In this document: piece by piece, positions 2,218 to 63,078 of the stretch
How positions within the stretch are numbered: the stretch's first letter is position 1
How the letters are laid out: every line of letters starts with the position of its first letter
DNA from: Alphaproteobacteria bacterium
Lineage (GTDB): Bacteria > Pseudomonadota > Alphaproteobacteria > UBA8366 > JADFVY01
DNA: 64,000 nt
Assembly (NCBI GenBank): GCA_041584475.1
Contig: JBFHDX010000003.1
Span: 12,621-76,620 of the forward strand
Reading direction: 5' to 3'
Position numbers and translations under genes: made by a program
Notes under the pieces: model-generated
The model's input: the letters and a program-made list of their open reading frames with translations, nothing else
Told to the model about the DNA's origin: nothing
The model's database searches: none

Positions 2218-3096
2218 TCACTTCATCGTCGTCTTGGTCTCGAAGAAGCGGTCGTTTTCCTTGATCGATTGCCGGATCGTCTCGTAATCCGCATCGGAGC
2301 CGGCCAGCATGCCGTCAGCCTGCAGAGCCTTGAGAGCTTTCTTGTCCTTGAGGTTCAGCAGCGCGACACGCAGCGCCTGCTCGAGCTCCGCCGGAAGGCC
2401 GGCCCTCGCCACCCAAGGCTTGGTGACGTTGGGGAAGCGGGCGAGCTCGCGGATCGGAACGCCCTTCTTGACGAGCTTCCGGAACGTGCTTTCCTTCAGG
2501 GCGCCGGCGTCGAACTCGCCGCGACCGACGGCGATGCCCACCTTGTCGTGGCGGCCGAGATAATCGAAGCGCGCCAGGTCGCCGACACGAATCCCGTTCT
2601 CGACGAGATAGAGCTGCGACAGGTAGCGGCCGATGGTCGACTGGTCGTCGCCGAACGCGAACGACCTGCCCTTGAGCTGCGAGACTTCCGTGATGTCGCT
2701 GTCCTCGGCGACGCAGATGATGCCGTAGAAGGCCCGCTCGCCGTTCACGCTCTCCATCGCGAGGATGCTGATATTGGGTTCGAGATCGGTGCCGAGAACA
2801 TACGACGCCGGTCCCAGGCGCGTGAAATCGACGCGGCCCTGAACCAGATCATCGAGGCCGCCTTCGTAGGTCGGCGAAATCTCGAGCGTGATCTTTACCT
2901 CTTCGTTGAGACGCCGTGAGAGTGCCTCCTCGAGCACCGCAAGCGCCGGGCGGAATTGCCGCTCGATGTCGGCGCGGCTGTCGGTCGCGTAGACGCCGAA
3001 TTTGAGCGTCACTTCCGCCGCAGCCGGCCCGGCGGCAACGGCCATCGCCGCAAGACCGAGTCCTATCAGACCTGTAAACCGAATAAACGAAGTCAT
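2218..3096 (-). CDS. PhnD/phosphonate-binding-type periplasmic substrate-binding protein (orphan: no permease or ATPase adjacent)
   Basis: 292 aa with ATG at 3096 and a GGAGGA RBS (reverse complement of 3103-3108). Signal peptide is [22 protein letters not shown]-like body with LKFGVY...[24 protein letters not shown]...GYLGRHDKV, which I recognise as the PhnD-like family. It sits 47 nt upstream of the MCP on the same strand. Confidence 0.8.
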
Positions 3097-3404
3097 TTGG
3101 TTCCTCCAAAAATCCGTTTCGTTCGCAACCTTCTAACCGGCAGCCCGGTCGATAGGGCCCGTTCCGCCAGGGCGGGCTATCGGGCCAAACAGAAAGCAAA
3201 AACCGTGCCGCATTGATTCTAATTTTACTTGGATTTTAGTTAATTCGATGAGACCCCGATGTCCCTTTTCAGACGTGCATAGCTCACCATAGAACGTTGC
3301 CAGCTACGTACTATTCCAAAGTGACTTAATATTTCGCTAATAGTTGGGAAATCTCTTGGCCCCGGCCTGTCTTGGCCGGCCACGAGCCGGACGGGGATCG
3401 AGGG

Positions 3405-3480
3405 TGGTGGGCCCGGCAGGATTCGAACCTGCGACAACACCGTTATGAGCGGTGCGTTCTGACCGCTGAACTACGGGCCC
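3405..3480 (-). tRNA. tRNA with CAU anticodon: elongator tRNA-Met, or tRNA-Ile2 if C34 is lysidinylated
   Basis: The reverse complement GGGCCCGTAGTTCAGCGGTCAGAACGCACCGCTCATAACGGTGTTGTCGCAGGTTCGAATCCTGCCGGGCCCACCA folds as a 76-nt cloverleaf. It has a 7-bp acceptor stem, a GTTC/GAAC D stem, a CACCG/CGGTG anticodon stem with loop CTCATAA, a GGTTCGAATCC T arm and an encoded CCA. G1:C72 is paired, so it is not an initiator. Confidence 0.92.
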
Positions 3481-18838: not shown

Positions 18839-19729
18839 ATGGACTGGGACAAACTTCGAATTTTCCACGCGGTGGCCGAAGCGGGCAGCTTCACACATGC
18901 CGGCGAGGCGCTCAACCTGAGCCAGTCCGCGGTGAGCCGCCAGATCAGCGCGCTCGAAGAAAGTCTCCGGGTACCGCTGTTCCACCGTCACGCCCGCGGT
19001 CTGATCCTCACCGAGCAGGGTGACCTGCTGTTCCGCGCGGTCAAGGATGTATCGCACAAGCTCTCGATGGCCGAAGCCCTGATCTCGGAGAGCCGGGAGA
19101 GGCCGTCGGGCCCGTTGAAGATCACGACGACCGTGGCATTCGGCACGACCTGGCTGACCCCGCGCATCAAGGAATTCGTCGACCTGTTCCCGGAAATCGA
19201 GATCAGCCTGATCCTTACCGACGGGGCGCTCGATCTGAGCATGCGGCAAGCGGACGTCGCCATCCGCATGAGCCCGCCGCGCCAGCCCGACCTCGTCCAG
19301 CGGAACCTGATGACCGTCAACAGCCACGTCTACGCGTCACCGGACTACCTGGCCGAGCACGGCACGCCGCAGACCGCGCAGGAGCTCGACGAGCACGCGC
19401 TGATCGTCTACGGACGCGACCCCCCGCCGCCGGTGAGTTCCATCAACTGGCTGACGGAGGCCGGCGCCAGGCCGGAGCACAAGCGGCACCCGGTCCTGCG
19501 GGTGAACAATCTTTACGGCATCTACCGGGCCGTGCGAAGCGGCCTCGGTCTCGCGGCGCTACCGGACTACATGGTGTCGGAGACATCCAGCCTGGTACGC
19601 GTCCTGCCCGAGCTCTCGGGCCCGGGTATCGAGGCCTATTTCGTGTATCCGGAGGAGCTGCGGCGTTCGAAGCGGGTGAGCGTCTTTCGCGATTTCCTGC
19701 TGCGCAAAGTCGCGGAAGGGAATTTTTGA
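18839..19729 (+). CDS. LysR family transcriptional regulator
   Basis: 296 aa. The N-terminal HTH is LRIFHAVAEAGSFTHAGEALNLSQSAVSRQISALEESL, followed by a LysR substrate-binding domain. Confidence 0.92.
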   Translation: MDWDKLRIFHAVAEAGSFTHAGEALNLSQSAVSRQISALEESLRVPLFHRHARGLILTEQGDLLFRAVKDVSHKLSMAEALISESRERPSGPLKITTTVAFGTTWLTPRIKEFVDLFPEIEISLILTDGALDLSMRQADVAIRMSPPRQPDLVQRNLMTVNSHVYASPDYLAEHGTPQTAQELDEHALIVYGRDPPPPVSSINWLTEAGARPEHKRHPVLRVNNLYGIYRAVRSGLGLAALPDYMVSETSSLVRVLPELSGPGIEAYFVYPEELRRSKRVSVFRDFLLRKVAEGNF

Positions 19730-19962
19730 CGCTGCCGCTCGTTAATAAGAACGTGCATAGACTGCCGACCGTGCCATGCGGTTTTTGCATACCAGAATTG
19801 TCTAATCTGGTATGGAAATGTTAACGGCACGCTCTTATGTCTTGATTATCCTGGTGCGCTGCATATGTGCGGCGTCCTGGATGGAGGTTATCGGCGCAAG
19901 GCCGGTAACCAAGGGTCTTCGGACCCTACGTCTCCCAGACGTGAAGCCTCCCTGTTCAACTT

Positions 19963-19990
19963 GCCGGGCCCGCGTGGCCCGGCATTTTTT
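19963..19990 (+). terminator. Strong plus-strand intrinsic terminator
   Basis: GCCGGGCC (19963-19970), loop CGCGT, then GGCCCGGC (19976-19983), followed by A and T6 (19984-19990). On the minus strand there is no U-tract. A second 8-bp GC hairpin GCGCCGGC/GCCGGCGC follows at 19991-20013. Confidence 0.75.
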
Positions 19991-20031
19991 GCGCCGGCTT
20001 CCGGTGCCGGCGCCGTTGCCGCAGGCAGGCG

Positions 20032-21009
20032 TCACATGAACAGCGGTTCGCCCTCCAGTCCCTCATACAAATGTGCGACGAACTCGCCGTATCCGTTGTA
20101 AAGGCGCGTCGGGACCCTGCCATTGCCGAGCAGCCGCTCGGTGGCCTGACTCCAGCGCGGATGCGGCACCTCCGGGTTGACATTGGCCCAGAACCCGTAT
20201 TCCCGACCCTGCACGGTCTGCCAGAAATTCACTGGCCGTTTGTCGGTGAAGGTGAAGCGGACGATCGACTTGATCGACTTGAACCCATATTTCCAGGGAA
20301 CCGCCAGCCTGAGCGGCGCGCCATTCTGCTTTGGCACGGGCTTGCCGTAGGCGCCGGTCACGAGGAAGGCGAGCTCGTTGGTCGCCTCCTCGATGGTGAG
20401 CCCTTCGATGTAGGGCCACGGATACCAGATCTGCCGCAGGCCCGGCATCGTCTCACGATCCGCGAGCGTCTCCATTTCGACGTAGCGGGCGGCAGACAGC
20501 GGCCGCGCCATGTCGACCAGCGCCTTGAACGCGAAGCCGCTCCACGGCACGTCCATCGACCAGGCCTCGACGCAGCGGTGCCGGTAGAGCCGCTCTTCCA
20601 GCGGCATGCGCCGCAACAGATCGTCGATCGCGATCGTCATCGGCTGTTCGACAAGACCGTCGATGCGCACCTCCCACGGCCGGATCCTCAGCGCCTGCGC
20701 CCGCTCGGAAATCTCCTTGTGGCTGCCGAACTCGTAGAAATTGTTGTAGGTGGTCGCGAGCTTTTCGTCGGTAATCGGCCGATCCAGGCGATAGCGAAGA
20801 TTGCGCATGACCGGGTACAGCCCGGCCGAGGGGTCGGCTTCGGCCCGCGCCTCCTGCTTGCAGCCGGCGAGCAGGGTGCCGACGCCGCCGGCGAGCAAGA
20901 CCGGGCCGAGGCCCATCGCCTTTACGATCTCACGACGCCGCAGGAACAGCGATTCGTCGGTCGCCTCGCGCTCGGGCCGTTCCCAGCCGCGCGGATTCCT
21001 GATCAGCAT
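20032..21009 (-). CDS. msrP: Protein-methionine-sulfoxide reductase catalytic (molybdopterin) subunit MsrP/YedY
   Basis: 325 aa with ATG at 21009. Twin-arginine signal is LFLRRREIVKAMGLG. The YedY-like body includes YNNFYEFG, HRCVEAWSM and VPWKYGFKSIKSIV. Confidence 0.9.
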   Translation of the reverse strand: MLIRNPRGWERPEREATDESLFLRRREIVKAMGLGPVLLAGGVGTLLAGCKQEARAEADPSAGLYPVMRNLRYRLDRPITDEKLATTYNNFYEFGSHKEISERAQALRIRPWEVRIDGLVEQPMTIAIDDLLRRMPLEERLYRHRCVEAWSMDVPWSGFAFKALVDMARPLSAARYVEMETLADRETMPGLRQIWYPWPYIEGLTIEEATNELAFLVTGAYGKPVPKQNGAPLRLAVPWKYGFKSIKSIVRFTFTDKRPVNFWQTVQGREYGFWANVNPEVPHPRWSQATERLLGNGRVPTRLYNGYGEFVAHLYEGLEGEPLFM

Positions 21010-21181: not shown

Positions 21182-23203
21182 TCAGGCGGCGCGCTGGCGG
21201 TTGGCGATCACGTCGTCCGCGAGGCGACCCGTGAGTTCCGACAGATGGTCGAATTTCCAGACATAGGTGCCGACGCCGAAGGTCAGCGAGCGCAGCTCGA
21301 TGATGATGTCGTGCAGCTCCGCCTGCGGCATGTGGGCGACGACTTCGTCCCAGCCCGACCAGCCGGCCTTCGCGTCGAAGCCCAGGATCTGACCGCGACG
21401 TTTGCTGATCAGTCCCTGCACCTTCGCGGTGTAGCTGTTCGGCACATAGACATGGACCTCGCAGATCGGCTCGAGCAGCACCGGATCGCATTGCGGGATC
21501 GCATCCTTCATGCCCTGTATCGCGGCGAGCTTGAAGGCCATGTCCGAGCTGTCGACGCTGTGGTACTGGCCGTCGAACAGGTTGACCGCGAAATCGACCA
21601 GCGGGAAGCCGAGCGGACCTTCCTGCATGTACTCCCGGACGCCCGCCTCGACCGCCGGGATGTACTGGCGAGGCACGGCGCCGCCGGTGATCGATTCGCT
21701 GAACTCGAACCCCGTGCCGCGCCGTAGCGGCTTGACCTCGATCTGCACGTCGCCGAACTGTCCGTGTCCGCCGCTCTGTTTCTTGTGACGGGCGTGCTGC
21801 TTGATGCCCTTGCGGATCGTCTCCTTGTAGGGAGTCTGCGGACGCCGGCTGTCGACCGCAACGTTGTAGCGATTGGCGAGGCGATCGGCGGCGACCTGAA
21901 GGTGGATTTCACCCTGCCCCCACAGAATCATCTCGCGCGTGTCCTGGCTGTGCTCGACGCTCAGCGACGCATCCTCGTCCATCAGCCGCTGCAGCGCAGC
22001 GGACAGCTTGACTTCGTCTTCCCGCTTCTTCGGCGTGATCGCGAAGGCATAGACCGGTTGTGCCGGCTCCGGCCAGGAAATCCCATCGACCGGGCCCGAT
22101 GTCGACAAGGTCTGCCCGGTCGAGACCTCGTCCATCCGGCCCAGGGCGACGATGTCTCCGGCCACGGCCGCCGGCACCTTCGAGAGGGTGTGCCCGACCA
22201 TGCGATTGAGACCGCTGACCTTGTGATCCCCGAAACTCATGCCGTCCTTGACGGTACCGCGGAAGACCCGGGCCAGCGAGGTCTTGCCCGTATGCGGCAT
22301 GTGGTAGGTCTTGAACACCTGGACCAGCGGCTCGCCGGCGGGGGCGCCGAGCCGCGCCACGGCCTTGTCGACCTCCGGGGTTTCGTGGCGCAGCGCCTTC
22401 ATCAAACGGTGCACGCCGTTCATCTGCTCGGCCGCTCCCAGGAAGACGGGCACGATCAGGTCCTGCTCGAGATCCTTGGTCAGGTGGCCGTAGATCTCGC
22501 TCTTTCCGGGCACGACGTCCTCGAGCAGCTGCTCGAGCAGCGTGTCGTCGAAGTCGGCCAGGGTTTCCAGCAGTTCCTGACGCGCGACGGCCTCGCGATC
22601 GCTCATGTCGCCCGGGATCGAGATCAGCTCCGAGGCATGGCCCGGCTTGAACTGGTAGGCCCGCTCGGACACCAGATCGACGTAGCCGGTGATCGACTCG
22701 CCCTTGCGGATCGGTACCTCGCGCAGCACCAGCTTGCGCGACGAGACCGACTGCAGCGCCTCGAGCATGTCGCTTATCCGCACGTCCGCATTGTCTAGCT
22801 TGTTGATGAACACCATGTGCGGGATTTCGTGCTCGTCGAGGAAGTGGAAGAGCGGCGCGAGCGTCATCGCGCGCTGGACCTCGGGGTCGCAGACGACGAC
22901 CGCGACATCGGCGACCATCAGCGCCGACCGGGTGTCGTTCCAGAATTCCACCGACCCGGGACAATCGAGGAAATGCCAAGTCTCGCCGAGGAACTCGGCC
23001 GTCGCCGGCGTTACCTCCACGCTCATGTTGCGGGCGCGCGCCTCGGCCGATGCGTCACCTACCGTATTCCCGTCCTTCTGATTGCCCCGGCGTTCGGTCG
23101 CGCCGCACGTGTACAGGAGCGATTCCATGAGCGTCGTCTTGCCGCTGAGATAGGGCCCCACGAGCGCTGCAACGCGTGGAGCCGCGGTTTTCGTGCCGGG
23201 CAT
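21182..23203 (-). CDS. Elongation factor G-like GTPase (EF-G paralogue, outside any ribosomal-protein operon)
   Basis: The track fuses this into a 1051-aa ORF. The real start is the ATG at 23203 (MPGTKTAAPRVAALVG), which has an AAGGAG RBS. G1 is GPYLSGKT, G3 is DCPG and G4 is NKLD. A domain IV-like KKQSGGHGQFGDV is present. Length is 673 aa. Confidence 0.88.
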   Translation of the reverse strand: MPGTKTAAPRVAALVGPYLSGKTTLMESLLYTCGATERRGNQKDGNTVGDASAEARARNMSVEVTPATAEFLGETWHFLDCPGSVEFWNDTRSALMVADVAVVVCDPEVQRAMTLAPLFHFLDEHEIPHMVFINKLDNADVRISDMLEALQSVSSRKLVLREVPIRKGESITGYVDLVSERAYQFKPGHASELISIPGDMSDREAVARQELLETLADFDDTLLEQLLEDVVPGKSEIYGHLTKDLEQDLIVPVFLGAAEQMNGVHRLMKALRHETPEVDKAVARLGAPAGEPLVQVFKTYHMPHTGKTSLARVFRGTVKDGMSFGDHKVSGLNRMVGHTLSKVPAAVAGDIVALGRMDEVSTGQTLSTSGPVDGISWPEPAQPVYAFAITPKKREDEVKLSAALQRLMDEDASLSVEHSQDTREMILWGQGEIHLQVAADRLANRYNVAVDSRRPQTPYKETIRKGIKQHARHKKQSGGHGQFGDVQIEVKPLRRGTGFEFSESITGGAVPRQYIPAVEAGVREYMQEGPLGFPLVDFAVNLFDGQYHSVDSSDMAFKLAAIQGMKDAIPQCDPVLLEPICEVHVYVPNSYTAKVQGLISKRRGQILGFDAKAGWSGWDEVVAHMPQAELHDIIIELRSLTFGVGTYVWKFDHLSELTGRLADDVIANRQRAA

Positions 23204-60483: not shown

Positions 60484-60521
60484 GCCTTCAGCGTCGTGGC
60501 TCGTACAGGGAGGAGACGAAG

Positions 60522-61190
60522 ATGGGACAGTTCATCGCGCTTGCAGCTTCGGACAGCCATGAATTCGCAGCCTATCGGGCGGAGCCCGAGGGACCATCGC
60601 GCGGCGCCGTCGTCGTCATCCAGGAGATTTTCGGCGTCAACAGCCACATCCGCGCGGTGACCGACGGCTTCGCGGCCGAGGGTTACATCGCCGTTGCGCC
60701 GGCCCTGTTCGACCGTATCGAAGGCGGCATCGAGCTCGACTACGACCCCGACAGCGTCGCCCGCGGCCGCGAGCTCAAGGCGAAGATGGACTGGGACGGA
60801 CCGTTGCGCGACATCCGCGCAGCGGTGGAGTCGCTGGCGGGAAGCAAGGTCGCGGTCGTCGGTTACTGCTGGGGCGGCTCGCTGGCCTGGCTGGCGGCGA
60901 CGCGGTTCGAGGGGCTGGCCGCCGCGGTCTGCTATTACGGGGGACAGATCAGGGAGTTTAGCGAGGAGACGCCGCGGTGCCCGGTGCTGATGCATTTCGG
61001 CAGCCAGGACCAGGGCATCCCGCTGGCCGACGTCGAGGCGATCCGCGCGTCGCATCCGGAGCTGCCGATCCACGTCTACGAGGGGGCGGGGCACGGCTTC
61101 AACTGCGACCAGCGCGCGAGCTACGATCGCGCCGCCGCAGCGACGGCACGCCAGCGCACGATGGAGTTCCTCGCGGCGACGCTGGGCTGA
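60522..61190 (+). CDS. Dienelactone hydrolase family protein
   Basis: 222 aa with a GGGAGGAGA RBS. Motifs are GAVVVIQEIFGVN, the nucleophile elbow VGYCWGGSLA and YEGAGHGF. Confidence 0.88.
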   Translation: MGQFIALAASDSHEFAAYRAEPEGPSRGAVVVIQEIFGVNSHIRAVTDGFAAEGYIAVAPALFDRIEGGIELDYDPDSVARGRELKAKMDWDGPLRDIRAAVESLAGSKVAVVGYCWGGSLAWLAATRFEGLAAAVCYYGGQIREFSEETPRCPVLMHFGSQDQGIPLADVEAIRASHPELPIHVYEGAGHGFNCDQRASYDRAAAATARQRTMEFLAATLG

Positions 61191-62067: not shown

Positions 62068-62955
62068 TCAGCGCCCGAGCACGCGCCCCGCGACCGCTGC
62101 AAGACGCTCCAGCACCGCGGGGTCGCGCCGGTCCTCGGCCGTGATCAGCGCCGCATCGAGCGCCGTGTGGCAGTTCGCATGACAGCGCTCGGAACGGCCC
62201 GACAGCAGGGGAGCGACCTCGCGCACCAGCGATCGGGCCTTTTCCGCGTTGTCGAGGAGCACCTTGATGACCGCGTCGACCGTGACGTCGTCATGGTGGG
62301 GATGCCAGCAGTCATAGTCCGTGACCATGGCGATGGTCGCGTAGCAGATCTCGGCCTCGCGGGCGAGCTTGGCCTCCGGCATGTTGGTCATGCCGATGAC
62401 GTCGCATCCCCAGCTGCGGTAAAGCTCCGACTCCGCCCGCGTCGAGAACTGCGGCCCCTCCATCACCAGATAGGTGCCGCCGACGACGATCGGAATGCCG
62501 AGCCGGCGCGCCGCCGCTTCGATATGCCCGCCGAGCCGCCGGCAGACGGGATCCGCCATCGAGACGTGCCCCACCATGCCGGTCTCGAAGAACGACTTGG
62601 TCCGCGCGAAGGTTCGGTCGATGAACTGGTCGGCAATGACGAAGGTTCCCGGGTCCAGCTCCTCCCTCAGCGAGCCGACCGCGGACAGCGACAGGATCTC
62701 GGTCACGCCGCTGCGCTTGAGCGCGTCGATATTGGCCCGGAAGTTGATCCCGCCGGGTGCGATCCGGTGGCCGCGACCGTGACGCGGCAGGAACACGAGC
62801 TGCTGACGGCCGAGGCGGGCGAACATCAGCTCGTCGGACGGCGCGCCGTAGGGGCTATCGACGGACCGCCACGCGACGTCCTCGAGCCCGTCAATGTCGT
62901 ATAGTCCGCTGCCGCCGATGATCCCGATGACCGGCGGCGTTCCCGGCTCAGCCAT
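62068..62955 (-). CDS. mtnP: S-methyl-5'-thioadenosine phosphorylase
   Basis: I prefer the ATG at 62955 (MAEPGTPPVIGIIGGSGLY). Motifs are FLPRHGRGHR, VGSLREE and VIGMTNMPEAKLAREAEICYATIAMVTDYDCW. Confidence 0.9.
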   Translation of the reverse strand: MAEPGTPPVIGIIGGSGLYDIDGLEDVAWRSVDSPYGAPSDELMFARLGRQQLVFLPRHGRGHRIAPGGINFRANIDALKRSGVTEILSLSAVGSLREELDPGTFVIADQFIDRTFARTKSFFETGMVGHVSMADPVCRRLGGHIEAAARRLGIPIVVGGTYLVMEGPQFSTRAESELYRSWGCDVIGMTNMPEAKLAREAEICYATIAMVTDYDCWHPHHDDVTVDAVIKVLLDNAEKARSLVREVAPLLSGRSERCHANCHTALDAALITAEDRRDPAVLERLAAVAGRVLGR

Positions 62956-63078
62956 TGCCCTTGCCTCCCTGCTCGCTGGGCACACTCCGCCGGAGTATCG
63001 GCCGCGGCGCAGGCGCGATCAACCGGCTACGTCGTGCGCCGCCCGGTGTGCGGAATCGCGCGACCGGACGGGCGGCGG

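Follow-up and report, generated by a model that had tools for sequence, protein, structure and literature searches.

We analysed a stretch of DNA of 64,000 nucleotides (nt) from an alphaproteobacterium (contig JBFHDX010000003.1; hereafter the window) and focus on the spacer between the gene of a LysR-family regulator and the convergent msrP gene. Judged by its sequence, the regulator is an orthologue of LsrB/VtlR. We believe that positions 19846-19990 of the plus strand are probably the gene of a trans-acting small RNA (sRNA) of ~144 nt, which has a promoter of its own and is activated by this adjacent regulator. An initial annotation, made from the letters alone, had put forward, as one candidate, an independent, terminator-capped, trans-acting sRNA here, on the plus strand and with an unpaired C-rich anti-Shine-Dalgarno (anti-SD) motif. 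Comparison with other Alphaproteobacteria supports this candidate, and it is the comparative evidence, not statistics on the window sequence alone, that is decisive. The features of the locus are as follows.

18839-19729, plus strand: gene of the LysR-family regulator, 296 amino acids (aa); NCBIfam LysR family, with no equivalog match
19776-19799, no strand assigned: predicted LsrB/VtlR operator, an ATGC-N7-GCAT palindrome (19776-19790) overlapping GCAT-ACC-AG-AAT-T (19787-19799)
19789-19813, no strand assigned: inverted repeat ATACCAGA-N9-TCTGGTAT between the box and the -35 element, a possible activation-site region
19813-19840, plus strand: predicted core promoter, with a weak -35-like TGGAAA (19813-19818), a 16-nt spacer and a -10-like (C)TTATGT (19834-19840)
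19846-19990, plus strand: predicted primary sRNA of ~144 nt; 5' end predicted, 3' end at the U-tract
19848-19882, plus strand: 5' stem-loop with the core GCGCUGCA-UAUG-UGCGGCGU at 19856-19875, from the minimum free energy structure
19886-19910, plus strand: hairpin HP0, GGUUAUCGGC-GCAAG-GCCGGUAACC, helix 1 of the covariance model
19913-19926, plus strand: hairpin HP1, GGGUC-UUCG-GACCC with a UUCG tetraloop, helix 2 of the covariance model
19927-19943, plus strand: hairpin HP2, (U)ACGUC-UCCCA-GACGU(G), with CUCCCA (19932-19937) in the loop, from conservation
19944-19961, plus strand: unpaired seed region AAGCCUCCCUGUUCAACU with the anti-SD core CCUCCCUGUU at 19947-19956, from the centroid structure
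19962-19990, plus strand: intrinsic terminator with a 9-bp stem, the loop CGCGU and U6, from a terminator scan
20032-21009, minus strand: msrP (MsrP NF003767, 412 bits)

The predicted RNA and its fold

The RNA from 19847 to 19990 folds at -74.6 kcal/mol, against -52.9 +/- 4.3 for shuffled sequences (z = -5.0), and none of the 200 shuffles equalled it. The motif CCTCCCTGTT occurs once in the 64 kb of the window, with 0.02 occurrences expected. The terminator reads GCCGGGCC-CGCGT-GGCCCGGC at 19963-19983, followed by an A and by T6 at 19985-19990. It lies on the plus strand and is the sole terminator-like site in 19400-20400, a count that is not above chance (1 found, 1.0 expected). On the minus strand no U-tract follows the hairpins.

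Much of this had been picked out in the initial annotation and is indeed present: the UUCG hairpin AGGGTC-TTCG-GACCCT at 19912-19927, the hairpin ACGTCT-CCC-AGACGT at 19928-19942, the CCTCCC motif at 19947-19952, which is unpaired in the centroid structure, and a terminator ending at 19990 that the scan finds on the plus strand only.

A conserved and covarying RNA family

A search of one genome for each species with the pattern GACRYG-N2-3-CCTCCCTGTT-N4-8-GCCGG gave at least 120 loci, all but two of which have the appearance of true copies. It is important to realize that the pattern fixes part of the core, so the conservation of GACRYG, CCTCCCTGTT and GCCGG is partly by construction. The loci fall into two types. 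Type A is SorX proper and belongs to the Rhodobacterales (Ruegeria, Rhodobacter, Gemmobacter and others). Type B is the family of the window sRNA, with ~95 other alphaproteobacterial loci among the matches listed and a core of ~30 nt that is nearly invariant across them. It is built of a GCAA-type hairpin, a UUCG-type hairpin, ACGUCUCCCAGACGU, GAAGCCUCCCUGUU and a terminator, in this order. The carriers are found in the Rhodospirillales (Inquilinus, Niveispirillum, Nitrospirillum, Aliidongia), Reyranella, the Stellaceae, the Kiloniellales, the Thalassospiraceae and Micavibrio, and also among Caedibacter-, Caedimonas- and Odyssella-like metagenome-assembled genomes (MAGs), which are Holosporales-like. 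Between close relatives, with LysR proteins 80-86% identical, the four sequences compared agree throughout positions 19913-19956 (one of them, L011, ends just past 19956) while the rest of the spacer drifts.

On a plain MAFFT alignment, whose 5' part was misaligned, RNAalifold found no more than HP2 and the terminator, so the structure was written by hand on a cleaner alignment of 30 type-B sequences and these were then realigned with a covariance model. The resulting model, R1, separates the two types cleanly (47-114 bits for type B versus 27-38 bits for type A) and has a single match in the window, at 19882-19990 with 112.6 bits. Pair counts were taken on a model alignment of 101 sequences. 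There 95.4% of the cells hold a standard pair, versus 76.5% after shuffling, and 23 of the 26 pairs change on both sides (435 cells), versus a shuffled mean of 14.5 of 26 (96.1 cells); these pairing counts are somewhat inflated, since the alignment had been fitted to the model. The margin over slid controls is still large, since the covariation score is 0.508 and partners slid by 1-3 columns reach at most 0.125.

Three of the four modelled helices covary strongly across the ~95 type-B loci. All seven pairs of HP0 change on both sides, with all six pair types and 90.8% of cells paired. All five pairs of HP1 do the same, again with all six pair types and with 96.6% of cells paired, and 28 of its cells are G-U pairs that fit the plus strand only. 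Such frequent G-U pairs identify the plus strand as the strand of the RNA. The inner pairs of the terminator covary as well, with 27, 38 and 20 cells that changed on both sides. HP2 is the exception, being nearly invariant in the ~95 loci though the search pattern fixed only its 3' arm; this near-invariance is neither for nor against pairing. A rare, fully compensated variant, CAUGUC...GACAUG, is found in L070 and L095.

Some loci hold two type-B copies: L100 (4919-5036 and 5197-5309), L056 (754-862 and 1001-1120) and L073 (2170-2290 and 3383-3492). These pairs recall the tandem arrangement of abcR1 and abcR2. A few contigs that carry the cassette have surprising titles, namely MAGs called 'uncultured Flavobacteriales', 'Planctomycetales' and 'Pseudobdellovibrionaceae' (L065, L071, L094) and two called 'Rhizobium sp. 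Q54' (L085, L089). We regard these titles as likely binning or naming errors.

The regulator and its linkage to the RNA

The conserved partner of the sRNA is the LysR gene. Among the matches listed, 77 type-B loci extend far enough upstream for a count of neighbours. A full-length LysR orthologue (41-83% identical) lies directly upstream on the same strand at 65 of them, and the orthologous gene is found at none of 24 type-A loci. On the other flank of the spacer, a convergent msrP is found downstream at only 14 of the 77. On these synteny counts, 14 against 65, we rejected the functional link to msrP that we had considered, and msrP is an incidental neighbour.

The identity of the regulator comes from its best match in the PDB, 9hh1_A, which is full length with E 1.2e-96 and 327 bits; the next LysR-type transcriptional regulator (LTTR) in that search has E 1.9e-34 and 123 bits. 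Entry 9HH1 is LsrB of Agrobacterium tumefaciens (PMC11975290). The two proteins align without gaps at 49% identity, rising to ~80% in the helix-turn-helix DNA-binding region. Close homologues of the window protein are annotated as Rhodospirillales, Stellaceae and Aliidongia.

The window regulator has no cysteines at all. The positions of C144, C236, C244 and C273 in the A. tumefaciens protein are occupied by V, V, A and V, and C144 and C273 are the conserved redox cysteines of that protein (PMC11975290). The thiol switch of the Rhizobiales LsrB therefore cannot operate here. A trxB gene directly upstream of the regulator gene was not found in the window, where the gene in that position encodes a 2OG-Fe(II) oxygenase. 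At the Aliidongia locus L015 the gene upstream of the LysR gene is a 333-aa Pyr_redox_2 gene, likely a thioredoxin reductase.

The predicted operator and promoter

The published VtlR box is GCAT-N3-TG-N3-T (PMC8844928; PMC7486931), and it lies at -61 to -49 in PabcR1 (PMC8844928). The window box, GCATACCAGAATT at 19787-19799, fits it except for AG in place of TG. An exact ATGC-N7-GCAT lies upstream of 68 type-B copies, among the matches listed, and upstream of none of the type-A copies scanned. Anchoring the loci on this box gives the consensus AGCcATGC-N7-GCATa.CtG...TG, which contains the published VtlR/LsrB consensus. Published work has termed the box possibly unique to the Rhizobiales. The initial annotation had read a weak hairpin with T5 at 19767-19786 as a possible terminator for the LysR mRNA; this is actually the A/T-rich spacer of the conserved box.

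The position of the box relative to a -10 element is fixed. TAnnT is found 60 nt (+/-1) from the start of the box in 46 of 62 non-redundant loci, with a background of 0.9% per position, and this spacing stays the same while the RNA core lies anywhere from 112 to 218 nt away from the box. In the window the element is CTTATGT. The window promoter aligns column for column with the abcR promoters of the Rhizobiales, with CTTATGT over CCATATC at the same distance from the box. Transcription would start at about 19845-19848, ~117 nt past the stop codon of the LysR gene. With a start near 19846-19848 the GCAT...T of the box would lie at about -60 to -48. Shortly past the -10 a perfect hairpin of at least 6 bp occurs in 42 of the 62 loci, often as GAUGYUGC...GCAGCAUC, a count made without a shuffle control.

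The -10 element differs from the one proposed earlier. The letters of TTAACG (19821-19826)-N17-GATTAT (19844-19849) are there, but as a promoter this candidate falls away, since even the closest relatives have not kept it; the -10-like element that is kept is CTTATGT (19834-19840). We also considered TGGAAA-N15-CTTATGT as a sigma-32 (RpoH) promoter and made this a lesser candidate, no longer the main interpretation, once it aligned with the sigma-70-type abcR1 promoters (CTTGAC-N17-CTATAT). The inverted repeat ATACCAGA-N9-TCTGGTAT of the initial annotation exists, one base away from where it was placed, at 19789-19813. It overlaps the box and is kept only in the closest clade (L013, L014, L065, L103). 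Across the family only scattered positions of this region are conserved, a T at +23 and T..G at +37/+39.

Three observations support a promoter that is independent of the LysR gene. A strong terminator follows the LysR gene at the Aliidongia locus and the sRNA is still found ~230 nt further on. The tandem copies of L100 each have an ATGC-N7-GCAT box of their own. The box is kept in L019, L091 and L114, which have no adjacent LysR gene.

Comparison with known sRNAs

The closest system in organization is AbcR, also called alpha-r15 (Rfam RF02345, gathering score 40 bits; true AbcR loci score 58-120 bits). The order in A. tumefaciens is trxB-vtlR-abcR1-abcR2, and VtlR directly activates abcR1 (PMC7486931). 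Among 80 loci that we fetched with the A. tumefaciens LsrB as query, the Agrobacterium-like ones have ar15 ~180-200 nt past lsrB on the same strand, often in tandem. The window likewise has an sRNA directly downstream of an lsrB/vtlR orthologue on the same strand, behind the same type of operator with its upstream ATGC half-site, in the same position and with the same spacing to the -10. Motif M1 of AbcR, CUCCCA, lies in a hairpin loop, and in Brucella target regulation depends on it (PMC5461406); the window RNA has CUCCCA in a hairpin loop too. In both RNAs a second C-rich unpaired motif lies between the CUCCCA hairpin and the next hairpin, and AbcR1/2 of Sinorhizobium meliloti target ribosome-binding sites with two motifs, one in a loop and one in a linker (PMC8844928).

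The differences are clear as well. The second motif is GUUCCC in AbcR and CCUCCCUGUU in the window, where the unpaired stretch is GAAGCCUCCCUGUU. The window RNA has five hairpins in ~144 nt, AbcR three in ~115-121 nt, and the CUCCCA hairpin is the fourth in the former and the first in the latter. The window has a single copy, a regulator without any of the four cysteines of the A. tumefaciens LsrB, and no trxB upstream. R1 gives at most 20 bits on lsrB loci of the Rhizobiales type, which is marginal.

The more distant lsrB loci match no Rfam family, and C-rich, sRNA-like sequences of varied form lie downstream of lsrB behind the same box. Three of these loci (L172 2734-2950, L212 1440-1640, L194 ~2890-3130) have an LsrB that is 57-67% identical to that of A. 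tumefaciens, and their downstream sequences seem to stand between AbcR, alpha-r8 and type B. A CCUCCCA loop and UUUCCUCCCAGGG are found in L172, CCCUCCCUGUG in L212, and three CCUCCC motifs in L194; none of the three sequences reaches a Rfam gathering score.

By covariance-model score, the 3' half of the window RNA is closest to SorX. Both have the identical unpaired CCUCCCUGUU, then a very similar GC-rich terminator of the GCCGGGCC type, and before it a hairpin with a related 3' arm (GACRYG), with L070 and L095 as intermediates. Both lie downstream of a transcription-factor gene on the same strand. However, the upstream gene is of the OmpR type for SorX and of the LysR type here; an OmpR-type response-regulator gene ends ~75-100 nt upstream in all eight type-A loci examined, and the LsrB box is absent from every type-A locus scanned. 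Additional 5' hairpins and the CUCCCA loop also set the type-B RNA apart. In Rhodobacter (Cereibacter) sphaeroides, SorX is Hfq-dependent and represses potA; it is reported to derive from the 3' untranslated region (UTR) of the ompR-1 (RSP_0847) mRNA and to be matured by RNase E from 116 to 75 nt. All 13 Rhodobacterales copies tested pass the SorX threshold (69-96 bits), and the window relatives L013, L014 and L015 score 34.2, 29.9 and 32.3 bits with the SorX model.

SorX loci of the Roseobacter group (L020, L032, L033, L052, L074, L080 and other Ruegeria-type loci) carry TTGACGTGGATCAA, a Crp/Fnr-like TTGA-N6-TCAA site, ~45-60 nt upstream of the SorX hairpin; its centre lies ~41 nt before the 5' end of AACCCGCG, with TAGATT as -10. 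The Rhodobacter-like SorX copies L067 and L017 have CCTATATAT or GGTATAT instead. It would seem that clades differ in the regulator to which this one sRNA core is connected.

The linker of the window RNA resembles the C-rich 10-mer of alpha-r8 (RF00519, suhB/mmgR), whose members include MmgR of S. meliloti, SuhB of Sphingopyxis granuli and SisA-D of Caulobacter. RF00519 and ar15 belong to one Rfam clan (CL00108). The alpha-r8 RNAs share with the window a hairpin, an unpaired anti-SD stretch with CCUCCCU and a terminator. They differ in the 10-mer itself (UUUCCUCCCU versus AAGCCUCCCU in the window, 7 of 10 positions the same) and in gene context, the canonical copy adjoining an N-formylglutamate amidohydrolase gene (PMC12559287) and the window RNA lying between LysR and MsrP genes. 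SisA pairs through its C-rich 10-mer (PMC12559287) and SuhB blocks the Shine-Dalgarno sequence of thnR. In S. granuli an LTTR activates SuhB directly via a T-N11-A site (bioRxiv 10.64898/2025.12.09.693200). We considered whether SuhB and its LTTR could be the same cassette and rejected this, as the regulator gene, SGRAN_2041, lies 1.85 Mb from suhB.

An LTTR that activates an adjacent sRNA gene regulating many mRNAs is familiar from OxyR-OxyS and GcvA-GcvB of the enterobacteria, where the two genes are divergently transcribed; OxyR senses peroxide through cysteines. The likeness is that of an LTTR beside an sRNA gene. The RNAs and regulators are unrelated in sequence to those of the window, and the window regulator has no cysteines.

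How then should the window RNA be classified? By analogy it is AbcR1-like in context, regulator, operator and loop motif. We assign it to none of AbcR, SorX and alpha-r8, because it reaches no gathering score and R1 is marginal on AbcR-type loci. We call it an LsrB-linked anti-SD sRNA, the counterpart of the AbcR sRNAs outside the Rhizobiales, with a 3' half in common with SorX. The initial annotation had named the CcsR/alpha-r14 families for the C-rich motif. Neither is among the eight Rfam matches that a permissive scan (E <= 10) returned, the window has one copy of the element, and the nearest known family by gene context, promoter and loop motif is AbcR.

A proposed mechanism

What is observed at the type-B loci is the set of elements, their conservation and covariation, a regulator gene linked to them, and a box at a fixed distance from the -10. 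From this we propose the following. The LsrB/VtlR orthologue would bind the ATGC-N7-GCAT / GCAT-N3-(T/A)G-N3-T box, whose palindrome is centred ~64 nt upstream of the predicted start, and would activate a promoter that has a poor -35 and the -10 CTTATGT. The RNA would consist, in this order, of the 5' hairpin, two structural hairpins with stable loops, the CUCCCA hairpin, the unpaired CCUCCCUGUU, the Rho-independent terminator and a U-tail. CUCCCA and CCUCCCUGUU would act as anti-SD seeds that pair with GGGAGG-type ribosome-binding sites of several mRNAs and block their translation; decay of these targets would probably be faster, and Hfq is most likely involved. We expect translational repression of several mRNAs by analogy with AbcR, SorX, SuhB and SisA, and the seed pairing is proposed by analogy with the same four. 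Transcription, its exact 5' end, binding of the regulator to the predicted box, the inducing signal and the targets are what we infer from the observations.

Two ribosome-binding sites in the window are complementary to the seed over 9 nt, which is not above chance in 64 kb. One is CAGGGAGGC (62963-62971, minus strand), 7 nt before the ATG at 62955 of a gene for S-methyl-5'-thioadenosine (MTA) phosphorylase (504 bits). The other is ACAGGGAGG (60505-60513, plus strand), 8 nt before the ATG at 60522 of a YghX-like hydrolase gene. Polyamine synthesis yields MTA as a by-product, and SorX acts on the uptake of polyamines.

Several further points weigh against our reading, besides the inflation of the pairing counts and the AG in the window box. 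At the gathering score Rfam 15 finds only a tRNA in the whole window and nothing in the spacer. The nearest family by score is SorX (RF02784), which matches 19922-19989 over the full model length with 34.3 bits and E 9.6e-7, short of its gathering score of 46.6. The suhB/mmgR match has 20.8 bits against a gathering score of 41, and ar15 has no match on the window at E <= 10; since suhB is the best match of clan CL00108, an overlapping ar15 match would be below 20.8 bits. Homology to AbcR at the level of the RNA is therefore unproven. A simple sigma-70 scan does not call the promoter, the -35 being weak. No strong terminator lies between the LysR stop and the sRNA terminator (19729-19962), and read-through with processing could also contribute to the RNA. 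Thiol redox sensing, to go by its residues, cannot apply to this regulator. Matches to the seed complement within the window (at most 2 mismatches) number 23 against 13.8 +/- 4.1 expected and are not informative. Finally, the source is an uncultured alphaproteobacterium known from metagenomes.

Alternative explanations

The spacer could instead yield an sRNA of the SorX kind, cut by RNase E and other nucleases from the 3' UTR of a LysR read-through mRNA, with no promoter of its own and with the box serving another purpose. The arrangement is suggestive, since the RNA lies on the same strand directly downstream of a regulator gene as SorX does, all eight type-A loci examined have the OmpR-type gene upstream, and RNase E matures SorX from its longer precursor. 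The lack of a strong terminator in 19729-19962 would permit read-through, and past the 5' hairpin a GAGUUUC linker resembles an RNase E site in some loci (AGTT[TC] in 16 of 62). We nevertheless consider this origin unlikely. It does not account for a -10-like element that is fixed relative to the box while its distance to the RNA body varies, nor for a promoter that aligns column for column with the experimentally studied abcR promoters (PMC8844928). The strong terminator after the Aliidongia LysR gene, the tandem boxes of L100, and the copies without a LysR gene next to them or with one at a distance of 2-3.4 kb (L019, L091, L114, L102, L129) also argue against it. Processing of a primary transcript to shorter 3' species could coexist with an own promoter.

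Much more improbable is a role in cis with no action in trans, either as a stability or termination structure in the 3' UTR of the LysR mRNA or as a buffer that serves msrP where transcription converges. The position between convergent genes and the strong terminator followed by a second GC-rich hairpin (19991-20013) would fit this role. But MsrP is the neighbour at few of the loci, the hairpins on the minus strand have no U-tract, and duplicate copies exist. The most telling point is that ~30 nt of unpaired and loop sequence (CUCCCA, CCUCCCUGUU) are invariant across orders while the stems covary, which fits a pairing seed and not a simple terminator. We give next to no credence to a small protein encoded by one of the three open reading frames in the mechanical list (19812-20039 and 19865-20101 on the plus strand, 19835-20035 on the minus strand). 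These frames run through the terminator, the most conserved stretch is a hairpin with a C-rich linker, and the variation consists of compensatory stem changes and of indels of 1-2 nt in loops and linkers, not of changes by codon position. We therefore retain the trans-acting sRNA with its own promoter over these alternatives.

A probable LsrB-linked circuit beyond the Rhizobiales

The VtlR/LsrB-AbcR circuit, important to the virulence of Brucella and Agrobacterium and to Sinorhizobium as a symbiont, has been treated as a feature of the Rhizobiales. The same cassette is now found in the Rhodospirillales, Reyranella, the Stellaceae, the Kiloniellales, Micavibrio and Holosporales-like lineages, with an RNA that Rfam 15 does not capture. 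In the searchable part of the literature we found no description of the type-B RNA or of the cassette outside the Rhizobiales. A model of a new RNA family can be built from the ~90 sequences and the structure given here, and we name as cultured carriers Aliidongia dinghuensis, Inquilinus ginsengisoli, Nitrospirillum, Niveispirillum and Reyranella. The cysteine-free regulator calls into question thiol-based redox sensing as the general signal of LsrB.

One RNA here joins the M1 loop of AbcR, a linker like that of alpha-r8 and the 3' half of SorX, so a common origin becomes testable. We offer a scenario tentatively, as one that may well be wrong. The type-B RNA would be near the ancestral form of a single pan-alphaproteobacterial superfamily of anti-SD sRNAs, which originally lay behind lsrB and was driven by LsrB. 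AbcR would retain the CUCCCA loop together with box and position, alpha-r8 the CCUCCCU linker, and SorX the 3' half, which moved into the 3' UTR of ompR-1. The cognate LsrB would be free of cysteines in most lineages and sense something other than thiol oxidation, and redox sensing in the Rhizobiales would be derived.

Other features of the neighbourhood

Directly 3' of the T6 of the sRNA lies the second GC-rich hairpin, GCGCCGGC-TTCCGGT-GCCGGCGC at 19991-20013. On the minus strand, which is the sense of msrP, what follows it is A6 in place of U, and msrP therefore lacks a canonical intrinsic terminator at this site. Beyond msrP the window has an EF-G-like gene at 21182-23203 on the minus strand, which encodes 673 aa in matching contigs. 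In L013 (4735-5478) and L014 (4813-5568) a gene with a metallo-beta-lactamase fold lies between msrP and the EF-G-like gene, and the window lacks it. The tRNA gene, the sole match in the window at a Rfam gathering score, is at 3408-3480 on the minus strand (72.7 bits).

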